Shown here in pieces: positions 5,463 through 52,412 of a stretch of DNA of 64,000 nucleotides. Where the stretch lies: positions 544,001 to 608,000 of the forward strand of contig CAXXVS010000001.1 of the NCBI GenBank assembly GCA_963674755.2, in the 5' to 3' direction. Origin of the DNA: Desulfobacterales bacterium (lineage in GTDB: Bacteria > Desulfobacterota > Desulfobacteria > Desulfobacterales > UBA5852). The translations under genes were made by a program, and so were the position numbers. How positions within the stretch are numbered: the stretch's first letter is position 1; each line of letters begins with the position of its first letter. Below the pieces are notes generated by a model. It saw only the letters and a list, made by a program, of their open reading frames with translations, was not told the DNA's origin and searched no databases.

Positions 5463-7700
5463 ATGAACCATCTCCCGGCCGACAGCGATGCCCCCATGGC
5501 ATCCGCCCCTGACGAAGTGACCCTGCGGGGCCGTGTGGAGCACATCACCTTCCAGAACCCGGACACCCATTTCACCATCGCCCGTCTGCGGACCGATCCT
5601 GACGGCCACCGGGTGACGATCCTGGGCCATCTTCTGCTGTCCGGGCAGGGCGAGACCCTGGAGGTCAGCGGGCACTGGGAGCGGCATCCGCGCTTCGGCA
5701 CCCAGCTGAAGGTCGCCCGCTATCAGATCCTGCTACCGGATACCATTGACGGCATCCGGCGCTATCTGGCCTCGGGCGTCATTCCCGGAGTCGGCCCCAA
5801 GCTCGTGGAGCGTCTGGTGCGGCATTTCGGCGCGGACCTGCTGGCGGTGATCGAAACGCGCCCCCGGGAATTGACCCGGGTGCGGGGAGTCGGTCCCCAA
5901 ACCGCCGCACGGATCGAAGAGGGCTGGAACACCCACCACGCCGCACGCCTATTGATGCAGTTTTTGCAGGACAACGGCTTGAAGCCGGCCTATTGCGGAC
6001 GGATCCTCAAGGCGCTGGGCGAGGACGCCCTGACATTGTTGCAGGAAGACCCGTACAGCGTCGTGGACGAACTGCCGGGCATCGGCTTCATGGTGGCCGA
6101 TGCCATAGCGCGCAATCAGGGGTTGCCGGCCGAAGATCCGCGGCGCATCCGGGCCTGCATCGGTTATTTGCTGGAACAGGCCGCGGCCGAGGGACATGTC
6201 TTCCTTCCGGAAAGCCATCTGCTGGAACGCAGCCACGCGCTTTTCGAGATCGCTCCGGATGACCTGGCGGCCGTGCTGGACGCCATGGCGCGGGATCGCG
6301 CCCTCCACGTCAGCGATGGCGGGGATGACACCGGCCGCCGGCTTTACACCATGGCGCTCTATGAGGCCGAACGGGGCCTGGCCCGGCGCTTGAACGCGAT
6401 GTTAGCGTTGCCCCTGCCGGCGACCGAATTCGCACCCGATGTCATCGAGGCCACGGTCACCAGGCGCCTGGCCATTCATCCCTCGCCTGCCCAGCAGGCC
6501 GTCCTCCAAGGGGTTCTGGGTCACCGGGTGGCGGTGATGACCGGCGGACCGGGCACGGGCAAGACCACCTTGATCCGGTCCCTCTACACCCTTTACCACG
6601 CCCAGGGCCGTTCGGTCTGTCTGGCCGCCCCCACCGGGCGGGCCGCCCGCCGTCTGTCCGAGGTAACCCGGCGGCCGGCGGCCACGCTGCACAAGCTGTT
6701 GGGGTACAATCCCTCCGCCGGGGAATTTGAAAAGGATCAGGACGATCCCATCGATGCGGATGTCTTCATCGTGGATGAGGCCTCCATGGTGGATACCCTG
6801 CTGATGGCGCAGTTTCTCAAAGCCGTGCCCCTGACATCCGTCCTGATCCTGGTGGGGGATGTCTTCCAGTTGCCTTCGGTGGGACCGGGCAATGTTCTCC
6901 ATGATATCATCGCGTCCCAGCGGCCGGCGATCTACCATCTCAAGGAGATTTTTCGTCAGGCCGAGGAAAGCCCCATCATCCTAAACGCCCACCGGGTCCG
7001 CGACGGTCAACAGCCCGACCTGGAGGCCGGCCGCGAATTGGATATCCTGGCCCCCTTCCATTTTATCGAAGCCGCCCGCATGGAAACCGTGGTCCGGACC
7101 ATCGTCGAGCTTTGCGCCCACTGGATTCCGGACCAGTACGGGATGGATCCCATAGACGACATCCAGGTGCTGACCCCGGTGCACAAGGGGGAAGCGGGCA
7201 CCATCAATCTCAATCAGGTGCTCCAGAAACGCCTCAATCCTGACCGGCGGAAGAACGCCGTGGGATTTCACCCGGGGGACAAGGTTATGCACCTGCGCAA
7301 CAATTACGGCAAAGAGGTCTTCAACGGGGATATCGGCCGGATCACGGAGGTGGCGGCGGCCCGGGAGCGCCTGAGCGTGGATTTCGACGGGCGGGAGGTT
7401 TGCTACGATTTTTCCGAGTTGAGCGAGTTGACCCTGGCCTACGCCATATCGGTACATAAATCCCAGGGGTCGGAATATCCGGCCGTGGTCGTGCCGCTGC
7501 TCACCCAGCACTATGTGATGCTGCAACGCAACCTGCTTTACACGGCCATTACACGGGGGAAAAGGCTGGTGGTTATCGTGGGCCGCCGGCGGGCGCTGGA
7601 AATCGCTTTGCAGAACGATCGCCCCCGGCAGCGCCTGTCCTATCTGAGGCAGCGGCTGGCATCCGGTGGAAACCTCGACGGTGGCGGATTTCCGGTCTAG
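5463..7700 (+). CDS. recD2: ATP-dependent RecD2-like DNA helicase
   Basis: HhH GVGP motifs, TGGPGTGKT, APTGRAA, VDEASM, GDVFQLPSVG, HKSQGSE, YTAITR. Confidence 0.95.
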   Translation: MNHLPADSDAPMASAPDEVTLRGRVEHITFQNPDTHFTIARLRTDPDGHRVTILGHLLLSGQGETLEVSGHWERHPRFGTQLKVARYQILLPDTIDGIRRYLASGVIPGVGPKLVERLVRHFGADLLAVIETRPRELTRVRGVGPQTAARIEEGWNTHHAARLLMQFLQDNGLKPAYCGRILKALGEDALTLLQEDPYSVVDELPGIGFMVADAIARNQGLPAEDPRRIRACIGYLLEQAAAEGHVFLPESHLLERSHALFEIAPDDLAAVLDAMARDRALHVSDGGDDTGRRLYTMALYEAERGLARRLNAMLALPLPATEFAPDVIEATVTRRLAIHPSPAQQAVLQGVLGHRVAVMTGGPGTGKTTLIRSLYTLYHAQGRSVCLAAPTGRAARRLSEVTRRPAATLHKLLGYNPSAGEFEKDQDDPIDADVFIVDEASMVDTLLMAQFLKAVPLTSVLILVGDVFQLPSVGPGNVLHDIIASQRPAIYHLKEIFRQAEESPIILNAHRVRDGQQPDLEAGRELDILAPFHFIEAARMETVVRTIVELCAHWIPDQYGMDPIDDIQVLTPVHKGEAGTINLNQVLQKRLNPDRRKNAVGFHPGDKVMHLRNNYGKEVFNGDIGRITEVAAARERLSVDFDGREVCYDFSELSELTLAYAISVHKSQGSEYPAVVVPLLTQHYVMLQRNLLYTAITRGKRLVVIVGRRRALEIALQNDRPRQRLSYLRQRLASGGNLDGGGFPV

Positions 7701-46425: not shown

Positions 46426-46610
46426 GATATTTTTCCTCAGGCGGCATAGCTGCCAGGCCCATAGATAATGGACGTCCGGTGCGGACGCTGATGATTTCCC
46501 CTACCAGACAAGCTTCGGGACGATCAAGGGAAAAGGGGATCGCCGGATGTCGAGATGCTTGACAAACCGGGCGGCCTCGGCTATGGGCAAATGACTTGAG
46601 AGGAATCGGG

Positions 46611-46658
46611 ATGCAAATGATCATGGGCTACGGCAACTGGTGGTGGCCGGCAGTTTGA
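46611..46658 (+). CDS. Trp-rich leader peptide MQMIMGYGNWWWPAV
   Basis: GAGAGG RBS, ATG at 46611, TGGTGGTGG at 46638-46646, TGA at 46656; TTGACA at 46559 upstream. Confidence 0.85.
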   Translation: MQMIMGYGNWWWPAV

Positions 46659-46751
46659 AGCGGCTCGCCACCAGACCCTACATCCTTTAAAGAACAGGGC
46701 TGTGAGCGGCTTCAGCGTGAGGCGTTGGAGAAGTTCATGGCTCTTTTTTTT
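46637..46751 (+). promoter_or_regulatory. Ribosome-dependent transcription attenuator (1:2, 2:3, 3:4 + U8)
   Basis: 1:2 = 46637-46649 / 46661-46674; 2:3 = 46657-46668 / 46702-46713; terminator = 46696-46707 / 46733-46744 with T8 at 46744-46751 (paired by eye, G-U allowed). Confidence 0.8.
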
Positions 46752-46894
46752 GACGGCTTCATAAATCGCTCAAAATCGGCGCTGTGCGGCCTTCGGCCCC
46801 GCGCTAGCGGTATTCCTCGTCGCGGCGGCGTTCTGATGCACGCCGCTCTCCTCGGAATTCGCACGCCGTATCTTGAACGGTTTATGAAGCCGTC
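46752..46894 (+). repeat. Palindromic intergenic element (copy B)
   Basis: GACGGCTTCATAAA...TTTATGAAGCCGTC terminal IR; core GCGGCGTT-CTGATGC-ACGCCGC. Confidence 0.75.
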
Positions 46895-47022: not shown

Positions 47023-48831
47023 ATGCGCCGATTGATGTTGGGCAATGAAGCGATCGCCCGGGGACTGCTGGAAAACGGCTGCGCCATGGCCACCTCCTAC
47101 CCCGGCACGCCCGCTTCGGAAATCTTGGCTTCCCTGGCGGCCATGCGCACGGCCGAGCAGGTCGACATGCACGTGCAGTGGGCCGTCAACGAAAAGGTGG
47201 CCTTCGAAATCGCCTATGCCGGGGCCATGAGCGGTTTGCGCACGGCGGTCAGCATGAAGCAGGTGGGCCTCAACGTGGCCTCGGACCCCTTGATGAGCGC
47301 AGCCTACATGGGCACCAAGGGCGGGTTCGTGGTGATCAGCGCCGACGATCCCGGTCCCCACTCGTCCCAGACCGAGCAGGACAGCCGCATGATGGCCATG
47401 ATGGCCAAGATCCCGGTCCTGGATCCGGATTCCCCCCAACAGGCCAAAGCCATGGTGGCGCTGGCTTTCGATCTGTCGGAGGCCTTTGAGATCCCGGTCA
47501 TGGTGCGGCCCACCACCCGGGTATGCCACGCCCGCCAGGACATCGCCCTGGATGCCCTGACGCCCCTTGGTCGTCAGCCGGTATTCGAGCGCAATCCCGC
47601 CCGCTGGGCGGCCACGCCCAAGTTTCGGTACCATCTGCACGGGGAGCTGGAAGACAAGCTGGCCAAGATCGCGGCCTATGAGGCCACCGCTCCGGTTCAG
47701 CTCAACCCCCACGTCACCGGCCCCCAGGCCGTGGTCGCGGCCGGTGTGGCCCTGGCCCACACGATGGAAATCATGCGGGGGCTGGGGCTGTGGGATACTC
47801 TGCCCATCTACCAGGTGCGCCAGCCCTATCCCCTGCACACGGACTTCATCGCCCGGCTGGAAGACGCCCATGCCTCGCTCCTGGTGATCGAAGAGACCAC
47901 GGGCATGATCGAGATGCAGTTGGGGGACCGCCATCGGGTGGCCGGCAAACAAAGCGGGGCCGTGCCCCGGGTGGGTGAGCTGGCGCCGGAAGCCATCGAA
48001 GACATTTTATGCCGTTTCAGCGGACGATCCCGTACCGTCGCGCGGCCGCCGGCCGTGGCCGGCCGACGGCCGACCCTGTGTGCCGGATGCCCCCACCGGG
48101 CCAGTTTTTTTGCCATCAAGAAAGCGGCCCCCCGGGCCATCTACACGAGTGATATCGGCTGCTACACCCTGGGACTGAACCTGGGGGCCGTGGATACGGT
48201 GTTGTGCATGGGGGCCGCCATCAGCCAGGCGGCCGGCTTCTATCACGCGTTCAAGGACCAGGCCAAACCCCGGGACGTGGTGGCCACGATCGGGGATTCC
48301 ACCTTCTTCCATGCCGGTTTGCCGGCCCTGGTGGATGCGGTGGCCCATCGGGTCAAGATGGTGCTGGTCATCCTGGACAACCGTACCACGGCCATGACCG
48401 GCAACCAGCCCACTCCGGAAAGCGGGTGGGGGGCCTGCGGCGAACCGTTGCAGGCCGTCAACCTGGAACAATTGGTGCGCGGCTGCGGCGTCGACTTCGT
48501 GCGGGTGGCCGACCCCTACCGGACCGAGGCCCTGATCAAGGTTCTCAAGGAAGCCCTGGCCCATAGCCGGGAGACCGCAGCGCCGGCGGTGGTCATCTCC
48601 CGGGCCCCCTGTCTGATCGACAAACAGGCCACGCTCACCAAAAGCACGGGCGCGCCCCCTGTTGTAAGCGATGTGTGCGACGGCTGCGGATATTGCGTCC
48701 AGCAGTTCGAGTGCCCGGCCATCGTCATGGCCGAAGACGAATCCCATGTGACCATCGACTCCGTGCTGTGCAGCGGATGCGGTGTGTGCGCGCAGGTCTG
48801 CCCGAAGCATGCCATCCGAGGCGACGCTTAG
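47023..48831 (+). CDS. iorA: Indolepyruvate:ferredoxin oxidoreductase alpha subunit
   Basis: [53 protein letters not shown], two C-terminal 4Fe-4S motifs. Confidence 0.95.
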
Positions 48832-48879: not shown

Positions 48880-49434
48880 ATGACGGAAACGACGCGCCAG
48901 CAGGTGGTCATCAGTGGAGTGGGAGGCCAGGGGGTGCTGTTCGTTACACGCCTGCTGGCGGAAGCCGCCATTCGCAAAGGGTTGCCGGTCCTGACATCGG
49001 AAACCCATGGCATGGCCCAGCGGGGCGGTACGGTTATCTCCCACTTGAAGGTGGGCGATTTTACCAGCCCCCTGATCCGTAGCGGGCATGCCGATGTCCT
49101 ATTGGCCCTGAAGGCCGAAGGCGCCGCCCAGCACGGTCATTATCTGCATGACGGGGGATGGGCGCTGGTCAATGACCGTCACGGCAAAGAGGATACGGCA
49201 GGCGGTTGCTGGCAACGGCTGGATGCCGATCGCCTGGCGCAGGATAGCGGCAACCCGCGGGCCGTCAACCTGGTGGTCCTGGGCGGGGCGCTGGACCAAT
49301 CGGCGCCGTTGCCGCTGTTTTGCACCTTGAACGATATTCAGGCGGTTCTGGCAGCGCGCCTGGCCGCCAAACCGGATTTGTTGGAGATGTCCCGCAAGGC
49401 GCTGGCGGCAGGGTTGCAGGCGGTTGCCCCCTGA
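48880..49434 (+). CDS. iorB: Indolepyruvate oxidoreductase beta subunit
   Basis: GVGGQG, ETHGMAQRGG, N.VVLG. Confidence 0.92.
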   Translation: MTETTRQQVVISGVGGQGVLFVTRLLAEAAIRKGLPVLTSETHGMAQRGGTVISHLKVGDFTSPLIRSGHADVLLALKAEGAAQHGHYLHDGGWALVNDRHGKEDTAGGCWQRLDADRLAQDSGNPRAVNLVVLGGALDQSAPLPLFCTLNDIQAVLAARLAAKPDLLEMSRKALAAGLQAVAP

Positions 49435-49534: not shown

Positions 49535-50554
49535 ATGAGAAGAAAATCAGTTGCATGGACGACGCTGGGCCTGCTCGTTGGGGTGCTGAGCCTGCTTTTG
49601 ATGCCGGGGGCGGTCAGTGCCGGGACGATCACCTTGAGCTATGCCAATTTCCCGCCGGCCCCGACCTTTCCCTGTGTCCAGATGGAGCGCTGGAAGACCG
49701 AGGTGGAAAAGCGCACCAACGGGCAGGTGGCCATCAAGACCTATCCCGGCGGCACCCTGCTGGGCGCCAAGGAAATGATGGACGGCGTGATTGCCGGCCA
49801 GGCCGACATCGGCAACCTGTGCATGGCCTACCAGCCCGGCCGCTTCATCGTGACCAACGCCACCAGCCTGCCGCTGGGTATCCCCAACGCCCGTACGGGC
49901 AGCCTGGTTCTCTGGGCGCTTTATAACAAATACCACCCCAAGGCCTTTAGCCAAGTGAAGGTGCTCACCATGTTTACCACGGCACCGGCCAATATCATGT
50001 CGAAAACCCCCGTACGCAGTCTCGACGATATCAAAGGCCTGGATCTGCGCGCTTCCGGCGGGGCCGCCCAGATCCTGAAAGCCTGGGGCGCCAACCAGGT
50101 GGGCATGCCCATGTCGGCCACGCCGGAAGCCTTGCAGAAAGGTGTCGTACAGGGGCTTTTTTCCTCCCTGGAAGTCATGAAAGACCTCAAATTTGCTGAA
50201 ATTTGCCGCTATGTCACCATGACGGACACCGTCATCTACCCCTTTGCCGTGGTCATGAACATGGACCGCTGGCAGGCCCTGCCGCCGGATGTCCAGAAGG
50301 TGATGGACGACCTGGCCGAGGAACAGGCCGAATGGACCGGTGCTTACATGGATCAGCATGTGAAGGAAGCCATGGATTGGTCGGTCAAGGAATATAAGGT
50401 GGACGTCATCCAGCTGGACGCCAAGGCCAAGGCCGCCTGGGACCAGAAGCTGAAGTTCATCACGGACCAGTGGATGGCCGACGCCAAGGCCAAGGGGTTT
50501 CCCGCCGAAGCCATCGTGACCGACATCCGGAAGCTGACGGAACAATATCAATAG
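49535..50554 (+). CDS. dctP: TRAP transporter substrate-binding protein
   Basis: Signal peptide, YPGGTL, KGLDLR, EALQKGVVQG, W.ALPPD. Confidence 0.92.
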   Translation: MRRKSVAWTTLGLLVGVLSLLLMPGAVSAGTITLSYANFPPAPTFPCVQMERWKTEVEKRTNGQVAIKTYPGGTLLGAKEMMDGVIAGQADIGNLCMAYQPGRFIVTNATSLPLGIPNARTGSLVLWALYNKYHPKAFSQVKVLTMFTTAPANIMSKTPVRSLDDIKGLDLRASGGAAQILKAWGANQVGMPMSATPEALQKGVVQGLFSSLEVMKDLKFAEICRYVTMTDTVIYPFAVVMNMDRWQALPPDVQKVMDDLAEEQAEWTGAYMDQHVKEAMDWSVKEYKVDVIQLDAKAKAAWDQKLKFITDQWMADAKAKGFPAEAIVTDIRKLTEQYQ

Positions 50555-50570
50555 AAACATCAGGCCAGCG

Positions 50571-50605
50571 GGGCCGCAATCGTCGCCGGCGATTGCGGCC
50601 CTTTT
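50571..50605 (+). terminator. Intra-operon hairpin / partial terminator after dctP
   Basis: GGGCCGCAATCG-N7-CGATTGCGGCCC followed by TTTT. Confidence 0.6.
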
Positions 50606-50619
50606 GTTGAGGGGGCACC

Positions 50620-51111
50620 ATGGCAGTCCTGGAGCGCGTCACGCGTTTGCTGAACCGGCTGTTCGTTTTTTGCGGCGGCATGTTCCTGGTGGGCATGATC
50701 CTGCTCACCTGTGCCAATATCGCCTGCCGGGCCGTGTGGGAGCCGATTCGGGGCACGTTCGAACTGATGGGCTATTTCGGGGCCGTAGCCACCGCCGCGG
50801 CCCTGGCCTTTACCCAGATCAACCACGGCCATATCGCCGTCAATGTGTTGATCAACCACTTTTCCCCCAAGACCCGCCGATGCCTGAACGCCTTCAACAA
50901 CGCGACCTGCGCCCTTTTCTTCGCCGTGATCGCCTGGCAGATCGGATTGAAGGCTCATGGGTTCATGCAGACGGGTGAGGTGTCGGAAACCCTGCGGGTG
51001 ATTTTTTATCCCTTCACCTATATGGTGGCCGCCGGCTGCGGGGTGATCGCGCTGGTGTTTGTGGTGGATCTGCTCCGGCCGCTGCGTTCCGGCCCGGGAG
51101 ACCCGCCATGA
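50620..51111 (+). CDS. dctQ: TRAP transporter small permease
   Basis: Four TMs, PIRGTFEL, GHIAV. Confidence 0.9.
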   Translation: MAVLERVTRLLNRLFVFCGGMFLVGMILLTCANIACRAVWEPIRGTFELMGYFGAVATAAALAFTQINHGHIAVNVLINHFSPKTRRCLNAFNNATCALFFAVIAWQIGLKAHGFMQTGEVSETLRVIFYPFTYMVAAGCGVIALVFVVDLLRPLRSGPGDPP

Positions 51112-52412
51112 GCGCGGCCGTCGTGGGACTTCTGGGCATCGCCGTTCTGCTGGCGGTGTTGTTCCTGCTGGGCATGCCGGTGGGTATCGCCATGGCCATG
51201 GTGGGCTTTGGCGGCTTCTGCTACCTCGTGTCCTTCAATGCGGGCCTCCACATGCTCAGTTCGGTCTTCTGGGACACCTTTTCCACCTACGGCCTGACCG
51301 TGATTCCCCTGTTTATTTTCATGGGGCAGGTGGCCTTTTATTCCGGCGTCAACGAAAAGCTTTACCGGGCGGCCTATAAATGGGTGGGGCATATCCGCGG
51401 CGGGATTGCCATGGCCACGGTGCTGGCCTGCTCCGCCTTTTCCGCCATATGCGGGTCCAATGCCGCCACGGCCGCCACCATGACCACGGTGGCCCTGCCC
51501 CAGATGCGCAAATACCACTATCACCCCAAGTTGAGCACCGGCGCCATTGCCTGCGGCTCTACCCTGGGGGTGGTGATTCCGCCCAGCGTGGTCCTGATCG
51601 TCATCGGGTTGTCTACCGAGCAGTCCATTGCCCGGCTCTTCTACGGCGGCATCGGTGCCGGGATGTTGCTGACCCTGACCCTGATGGCCACGGTGGTTGC
51701 GGTGTGCCGCCGGCATCCGGACTGGGGCCCCGTGGGCCCCCCCACCACCTGGGGGGAGCGCTGGCGGTCGCTCTACGGGGCGTTGGAGATGGTGGTATTG
51801 TTTCTGCTGGTGATGCTGGGCCTGTTCTTCGGCGTGTTCACGCCCACGGAGGCCGGTGCGGCCGGAAGCCTGCTGGCGCTTCTGATTGCCGGGGTCCAGG
51901 GCCGCCTGAGCTGGAAGGGGTTTCTGGCATCGGTTAGGGATACCCTGAAAATTTCCTGCATGGTGATCGTGATCGTGACGGGCGCCATGGTGTTTGGCCG
52001 GTTTTTAGCCGTCACCCGCATTCCCTTCGACATCGCCGACTGGGTGGTGGGGCTGCCGATTCCCAAGGTCGCGGTGATGGGGATTATCTTTCTGATCTAT
52101 ATCATCGGCGGGGCGGTTATGGATGCCCTGGCGCTGCTGCTGATCACCATCCCGATTTTCTTTCCGGTGGCCTCTGAACTGGGATATGACCCCATCTGGT
52201 TCGGGGTGACCATTACGGTGGTGACCACCCTGGGGGCGGTGACACCGCCCGTGGGGGCCACGACCTACGTCGTGGGAGGCATGGCCGGTGATATCCCCCT
52301 GGAGGATGTCTTCCGGGGGGTGGCCTATTTCCTGCCGGCCTATATCGTCTGCATCCTGATTTTGATGATGGTGCCGGAGATCGTTACGTTTATGCCGCAT
52401 CTTTTACGGTGA
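51108..52412 (+). CDS. dctM: TRAP transporter large permease
   Basis: IPLFIFMG, GSNAATA, IPPS, FTPTEAG, TPPVG. Confidence 0.93.
   Translation: MSAAVVGLLGIAVLLAVLFLLGMPVGIAMAMVGFGGFCYLVSFNAGLHMLSSVFWDTFSTYGLTVIPLFIFMGQVAFYSGVNEKLYRAAYKWVGHIRGGIAMATVLACSAFSAICGSNAATAATMTTVALPQMRKYHYHPKLSTGAIACGSTLGVVIPPSVVLIVIGLSTEQSIARLFYGGIGAGMLLTLTLMATVVAVCRRHPDWGPVGPPTTWGERWRSLYGALEMVVLFLLVMLGLFFGVFTPTEAGAAGSLLALLIAGVQGRLSWKGFLASVRDTLKISCMVIVIVTGAMVFGRFLAVTRIPFDIADWVVGLPIPKVAVMGIIFLIYIIGGAVMDALALLLITIPIFFPVASELGYDPIWFGVTITVVTTLGAVTPPVGATTYVVGGMAGDIPLEDVFRGVAYFLPAYIVCILILMMVPEIVTFMPHLLR

Follow-up and report, generated by a model that had tools for sequence, protein, structure and literature searches.

Why should genes for an indolepyruvate ferredoxin oxidoreductase lie behind a leader peptide with three consecutive tryptophan codons? 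Bacterial iorAB genes are routinely taken as markers of aromatic amino acid fermentation and indole-acetate production, and PMC5817080 gives this usual fermentative reading. The window, i.e., the whole stretch of 64,000 nucleotides of a Desulfobacterales genome analyzed here, carries an iorAB operon whose leader is predicted to switch it off at high tryptophan, which opposes that reading.

The element begins with a predicted sigma-70 promoter on the forward strand (46559 to 46587), comprising TTGACA at 46559, a 17-nucleotide spacer, and TATGGG as the −10 hexamer (46582 to 46587). A Shine-Dalgarno-like GAGAGGA (46598 to 46604, +) precedes a leader peptide open reading frame, MQMIMGYGNWWWPAV (46611 to 46658, +), whose Trp-Trp-Trp run is encoded by TGG codons at 46638 to 46646. 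Extra in-frame ATGs occur at 46617 and 46623, and the real start may be 46617 instead of 46611, judging from the 13-codon length in 19 of 36 homologues. Four segments are arranged on the same strand. Segment 1 (46637 to 46649) overlaps the three TGG codons; segment 2 (46656 to 46674) begins at the leader stop codon and has segment 1 or segment 3 as its partner; segment 3 (46696 to 46718) is both the 3′ arm of the antiterminator and the 5′ arm of the terminator; and segment 4 with a T8 tract (46744 to 46751) completes a predicted intrinsic terminator (46722 to 46751). The pairings are located at 46637/46661 (1:2), 46657/46702 (2:3), and 46696/46733 (3:4). An earlier note on this DNA had proposed the TTGACA, a weak −10, the ribosome-binding site, the leader frame, the helices, and the T8 tract, and sequence and folding placed all of them correctly; its terminator was present but drawn too short, the helix actually comprising 21 pairs over 46696 to 46744, with an internal loop and an energy of −29.6 kcal/mol. 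A 143-bp dispersed, MITE/REP-like palindromic repeat with terminal inverted repeats (46752 to 46894, no strand assigned) lies directly after the T tract. It has 11 more partial matches in the genome, is missing from the closest relative (L021), and is not a component of the switch.

Folding of 46590 to 46760 gave the 1:2 plus 3:4 structure at −67 kcal/mol (z = −3.77), and none of 200 shuffles was equally stable. First-order Markov resampling of the intergenic region produced a short frame with WW or WxW followed by T6 in 5 of 2,000 sequences and the WWW version in none of 2,000. Short ATG frames containing WW are frequent genome-wide (1,039 distinct stops), and the leader peptide alone is therefore of little weight; structure and conservation carry the case. 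A promoter and terminator consensus scanner called neither the leader promoter nor the leader terminator; its alternative promoter, TTGAGA-17-GATCAT at 46596, was not adopted, as it overlaps the ribosome-binding site and the leader frame. Rfam covariance models (Trp_leader, other leaders, T-box, and riboswitches) gave only chance matches in the window (E = 1.4 to 7.2) and no match at gathering score in seven related loci. One RNA sequencing run yielded six contigs of 151 to 163 nucleotides on iorA and iorB and none on the leader, such contigs showing neither transcript ends nor levels. Taken together with the folding and conservation described below, we are highly confident that the attenuator architecture in the window is real.

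Nascent RNA was folded at eight lengths with the ribosome footprint held unpaired. With a ribosome on any Trp codon, the 2:3 helix had a mean pair probability of 0.67 to 0.96 in RNAs ending at 46714 to 46738; with the ribosome at the stop codon, 2:3 had a probability of 0 and 3:4 reached up to 0.98; and with the ribosome absent, 1:2 and 3:4 prevailed, 2:3 being formed transiently (0.79 at 46720). This length-by-length constrained folding reproduces the trpL-type logic invoked in the earlier note, in which a stall on the Trp codons frees segment 2: a ribosome stalled there leads to the antiterminator, one that has reached the stop codon to the terminator. Covariation of the helices is seen in relatives. 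In fuller transcripts with a stalled ribosome, 2:3 dropped to 0.19 to 0.51 at 46744 and to approximately 0 at 46751, and the helix energies are −17.6 for 2:3 versus −29.6 for the terminator. The terminator prevails at equilibrium once segment 4 is fully exposed, even with a stall, and control must therefore be kinetic. RNA polymerase conceals roughly the last 12 to 14 nucleotides of its transcript, and exposed RNA is therefore predicted to reach ∼46738 as the polymerase crosses the U tract. Equilibrium folding of the whole leader with ribosome constraints, tried as a switch test, gave the terminator in the window and most relatives and was uninformative.

From these folds we infer the following response to tryptophan. 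With tryptophan plentiful, the ribosome would get to the stop codon at 46656 and mask segment 2, 3:4 would form, and transcription would terminate at the U8 tract near 46750. With tryptophan scarce, the ribosome would stall at 46638 to 46646, 2:3 would form before segment 4 is free, and the polymerase would read through, such that the attenuator would turn on iorAB-dctPQM when charged tRNA-Trp is scarce. Leaders of the Trp-inducible TnaC type act in the opposite sense, in that a ribosome held at the stop codon at high tryptophan blocks termination; the leader in the window does not belong to this type, as a ribosome at its stop codon gives the terminator (0.98).

Within the genus, leader DNA was matched in 7 of 12 other genomes, with iorA downstream in all seven. 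In an 11-sequence alignment, two-sided changes occurred in 5 of 19 terminator pairs (0 of 500 shuffles) and in 2 of 12 antiterminator pairs (7 of 500 shuffles). A covariance model built from this alignment matched 49 of 151 genomes of the order (E ≤ 0.01). Among the 30 best loci in the order, 5 of which are training sequences of the model, 29 have Trp-rich leaders, situated upstream of iorA (17 loci), trpB2 (6 loci, with the trpB2 family confirmed on one), a PaaK-like ligase (4 loci), or a dctP orthologue (2 loci); the thirtieth has a Tyr/Phe leader ahead of aroG. Downstream of 20 extended leader loci are dctP (14), iorA (13), iorB (13), the ligase (12), and trpB2 (5), and the most complete gene order behind a Trp leader is trpB2-iorA-iorB-ligase-dctPQM. 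Among 20 of the 24 weaker matches in the order, most have Phe/Tyr leaders (ahead of ADH synthase-DHQ synthase II, aroG, or aroK) or Trp leaders, the latter preceding trpE, trpC, trpB2, or iorA, and a few are leaderless. In a phylum-wide sample the model matched 29 of 151 genomes, those outside the order weakly (E = 4 × 10−8 to 8 × 10−3). There, 5 of the 27 loci examined have a Trp leader upstream of iorA, and other Trp leaders stand ahead of trpE, trpD, trpB2, and one aminotransferase. The occurrence of the same element family before trpB2, and of weaker relatives before trpE and trpD, fits induction by tryptophan starvation.

All 36 leaders compared have two to five Trp residues, and the Trp run alone is conserved, with the remaining residues varying. 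The stop codon falls two to three codons past the last Trp in 29 of 36, and TTGACA lies 53 to 94 nucleotides upstream of the leader ATG in 23 of 36 (27 with looser hexamers). Paralogous iorA loci, used as a control, had the leader in 0 of 30 cases. The earlier note had pointed to iorA orthologues as the place to look for W-rich frames and covarying stems; both are conserved in the leader family, but among 78 close iorA homologues whose upstream DNA is long enough, only 7 have the leader. Within this genome the covariance model finds no second strong copy, and neither trpB2 nor the paralogous iorA has a leader. At one locus (L042) the leader is frameshifted at the Trp codons (∼5735 to 5780), by mutation or assembly error, and at another (L055) the promoter alone remains upstream of iorA. 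The W-containing frames upstream of L051 and L060 were rejected as leaders, being shadows of coding genes.

Relatives differ from the window in the number of segments. An additional 5:6 hairpin with T6 to T9 follows 3:4 in 24 of the 36 leaders, and in 20 of these 24, five or fewer T residues follow 3:4; the eight leaders closest to the window have no 5:6 hairpin and have T7 to T9 after 3:4. In a swap test of own-partner versus foreign duplexes, with nine near-duplicates dropped, the own partner was better for 2:3 (24 of 26), 3:4 (24 of 26), 4:5 (12 of 17), and 5:6 (17 of 17), each with P = 10−4, on segments taken from each sequence's own fold, which favors 3:4 and 5:6 by construction, and among kin that are not independent. 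Pairing 1:2 was not significant (8 of 26), and segment 1 barely varies. Of the six control pairings, five showed no effect, and segment 3 with segment 5 gave P = 0.02. Against mononucleotide shuffles, 4:5 was weak (mean z = −1.0 in 24 leaders), and the claim for 4:5 is based on the swap test rather than on the shuffle test. In these relatives, 1:2, 3:4, and 5:6 together would be the stop state of a six-segment relay and 2:3 with 4:5 the go state. The attenuator of the his operon has such a six-segment architecture. The 24 leaders with a 5:6 hairpin, T6 to T9, and a covarying 4:5 resemble it, whereas the leader in the window lacks 5:6 and carries its U tract on 3:4, and tryptophan rather than histidine would be sensed. 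The relay may have been shortened to four segments in this genus.

The operon behind the leader, iorAB-dctPQM, is divergent from nnr, and all five genes are on the forward strand. The first, iorA (47023 to 48831), encodes the alpha subunit of indolepyruvate ferredoxin oxidoreductase (TIGR03336, 653.5 bits; cutoff, 650.9), as the earlier note had it, and IorA had no match among solved structures at an E value of 10−10. It is followed by a gene for an IorB-like beta subunit (48880 to 49434; NF004916, 216.7 bits, just under the cutoff of 227), dctP for the solute-binding protein of a TRAP transporter (49535 to 50554), a gene for a small membrane protein (50620 to 51111; no NCBIfam match) that is probably DctQ from its position between dctP and dctM and its conservation, and dctM for the large permease (51108 to 52412; TIGR00786, over the cutoff). 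A G+C-rich hairpin followed by TTTTGTT lies between dctP and dctQ (∼50570 to 50610) and possibly stabilizes or partly terminates the dctP message.

The predicted model of DctP (pLDDT, 91.5) is closest to Desal_3247 (structure 4N6D) and Dde_0634 (4NAP, with 4PGN and 4PGP scoring nearly identically), with 56% and 49% identity, respectively, a Z score of 43, and a root mean square deviation of 1.7 to 1.9. The next best proteins have 26 to 28% identity, so that these two stand far above other TRAP proteins in overall identity and fold. Dde_0634 is termed an IAA-binding protein in a passage citing Vetting 2015 (PMC9543091), and the TRAP ligands mentioned from that study include indole acids (PMC5812351). 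By transfer from the 49% identical protein, the ligand of DctP would be an indole acid.

Salvage of tryptophan from indole acids is the likely role of iorAB-dctPQM under the tryptophan attenuator, and the cells probably regenerate tryptophan from indole acids that they scavenge rather than degrade it. The TRAP system would import indole-3-acetate and/or indole-3-pyruvate; a PaaK-like ligase would convert indoleacetate to indoleacetyl coenzyme A (indoleacetyl-CoA); IorAB would reductively carboxylate indoleacetyl-CoA to indolepyruvate with reduced ferredoxin as the donor; and an aminotransferase would convert indolepyruvate to tryptophan. In other genomes, TrpB2 under the same leader would salvage free indole. 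Both the ligand and the direction of Ior are predicted by analogy. That one predicted high-tryptophan-off switch stands before genes for a transporter, a ligase that activates acids, Ior, and TrpB2 points to salvage. The ligase scores below the PaaK cutoff, and its gene lies within the operon in most relatives (12 of 20); in this genome it is unlinked (contig C2, ∼965750 to 967064), has no leader, and belongs to the clade of the Trp-operon ligases. The operon itself contains neither a ligase nor an aminotransferase, and no dedicated aminotransferase for the pathway was identified, the best candidate having 35% identity. Salvage would supplement synthesis, because trpE, G, D, C, F, trpA, and trpB2 are present in the genome as well. 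The chemistry has a precedent in Methanococcus maripaludis, where aryl acids are turned into aromatic amino acids by way of Ior, according to passages citing Porat 2004 (PMC4162585, PMC3462420). The two systems have IorAB in common (here with the alpha subunit over its cutoff and the beta subunit just under) and may share an aryl-acid CoA ligase family gene, and the same chemistry is predicted; the present, putative system differs in being bacterial, in its TRAP importer, in an apparent split between Trp and Phe sensing, and in leader-peptide control.

A transporter and an aminotransferase might suffice, with the attenuator real and sensing tryptophan, the TRAP system taking up indolepyruvate or tryptophan isomers for simple transamination, and IorAB a passenger or a means of balancing aryl-keto-acid pools. 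The operon here is without a ligase, the leader precedes dctP without ior in 2 of the 30 best matches and ligase plus transporter in 4 of 30, and Dde_0634 was reportedly crystallized with indolepyruvate and D-Trp. However, in 17 of 30 the leader is followed first by iorA, and the ligase follows 12 of the 20 extended leaders, and transamination of indolepyruvate needs neither, which makes this simpler scheme unlikely.

Leaders of other kinds accompany related genes in this genome and elsewhere. On contig C2 (886087 to 886250, +; L258), a Phe/Tyr-rich leader, MMNARIYFYFFGFCGGFHFRKSTREPSS, a hairpin, and T8 are followed by a second PaaK-like ligase gene and Liv-type ABC transporter genes. Of the orthologous loci of the second ligase (L260 to L289), 19 of 30 again have a Phe leader. 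This ligase forms a clade separate from the Trp-operon ligases in the tree, and the set of genes around it probably does for Phe what the salvage module does for Trp. A Trp leader with five Trp residues, MKRSTGHHCIEYRWWWCWWHMP, and a multihairpin attenuator lie ahead of trpEGDCF (L259; C2, 474583 to 474515, −), a leader that the covariance model does not find. This genome also has a Phe/Tyr leader at aroG (contig C3, ∼567590 to 567400, −), and Phe/Tyr(/Trp)-rich leaders with terminators occur before aroG, aroK, and ADH synthase-DHQ synthase II-pheA operons across the order (L169, L171, L173, L175, L177, L178, L182, and L183). Two short frames with similar TTxDxEWW ends, each followed by T6, lie on C2 (607789 to 607857, +, and 637015 to 637074, −). 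In genome G179, a Trp leader directly precedes a class I/II aminotransferase gene (L218, 8731 to 9816, −), a candidate for the last step of salvage. Three weak model matches (L176, L187, and L217) are without a leader frame; in them a TTGACA promoter is followed by hairpins, in two cases upstream of TonB-receptor-like genes, and they are perhaps another cis-regulatory element.

The Phe-associated ligase also bears on the specificity of the operon, which might salvage aryl acids generally as Phe, Tyr, and Trp precursors, with tryptophan merely the starvation signal. Ior enzymes act on several arylpyruvates, and the next structural neighbors of DctP are binders of coumarate, cinnamate, and other aromatic acids. 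Set against this breadth, the separate ligase clade is served by a Phe-rich leader and a Liv-type transporter of its own, and an iorA paralogue that is near-universal is leaderless, which together suggest a division of labor; we therefore regard a general aryl-acid role as quite improbable.

One group of Ior genes has a different setting. A 31-member branch of iorA lies mostly behind serA, often with trpB2, and has acyl-CoA dehydrogenase genes nearby (FastTree of 98 sequences with the paralogue as root and L219 excluded; branch support 1.0, backbone weak). In 22 of 80 close iorA homologues, a palindromic operator-like motif, TGTATACnGTATACA, is present in the serA/trpB2 setting. At L024, L057, L061, L063, L064, L066 to L070, L073 to L077, L081, L083 to L086, L090, and L092, iorAB stands behind (trpB2)-serA and TGTATACnGTATACA, with a divergent FadB-like gene and acyl-CoA dehydrogenase/carboxyltransferase genes, which makes this cluster a candidate for anaerobic indole or tryptophan degradation, and the branch may be catabolic. 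That the operon in the window is itself catabolic (tryptophan or indole to indoleacetyl-CoA), its leader being either induced by tryptophan like tnaC or a relic, is very improbable: Ior is usually annotated as a peptide fermentation enzyme (PMC5817080), a close homologue clade has serA, trpB2, acyl-CoA dehydrogenase, and the operator-like motif, and the frameshift at L042 indicates that leaders decay, but folding yields the terminator when the ribosome stands at the stop codon and so predicts an off state at high tryptophan, members of this family also lie upstream of trpB2 and related elements upstream of trpE, and the leader in the window is intact and covarying.

Salvage of tryptophan thus being preferred for the operon, a broader reading can be framed, to which we give about the same chance of being right as wrong: an undescribed Desulfobacterota attenuator family would govern two aryl-acid salvage modules, for Trp and Phe, with a six-to-four-segment collapse and with one Ior branch rewired under an operator for indole or tryptophan breakdown. 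The Trp module (IorAB, the indole-acid ligase, the TRAP importer, and TrpB2) would fix CO2 onto scavenged indole-3-acetate, and the Phe module would use the paralogous ligase and a Liv-type importer.

The switch mechanism is textbook and belongs to the known trpL class, attenuators of which are described for E. coli trpEDCBA and Sinorhizobium meliloti trpE(G) (PMC6614838, PMC4615214). The window has a leader frame with a ribosome-binding site and tandem Trp codons, consecutive Trp codons over segment 1, mutually exclusive 1:2, 2:3, and 3:4 helices (from computational folding and covariation), and a predicted intrinsic terminator with a U tract ahead of the first gene, in a leader of about 150 nucleotides. 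Unlike in trpL, where a de novo operon is controlled, the putative targets here are iorAB, a TRAP transporter, a CoA ligase, and trpB2; the antiterminator begins at the leader stop codon, the terminator stem has 21 pairs, and there is no Rfam match. What was not found in Rfam or the literature searched is the sequence family, the predicted target regulon, and the relay variant. The earlier note caught the attenuator and iorA but did not notice the TRAP genes, that the regulon is wider, or that relatives have a six-segment form. It knew of no leader before ior genes, and our literature search likewise found no attenuator upstream of ior, although the older comparative surveys (Vitreschak; Lopatovskaya/Lyubetsky) may list some.

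The element represents an RNA family that Rfam does not contain and offers a natural set of switches ranging between six and four segments, and it would carry leader-peptide attenuation beyond biosynthetic operons into a regulon for transport and salvage. As the leader is predicted to switch iorAB off at high tryptophan, it could mark biosynthetic Ior copies. If the salvage reading is true, the aryl-acid route of methanogens extends to abundant sulfate reducers of sediment and rhizosphere, which would then be consumers of indole acids.
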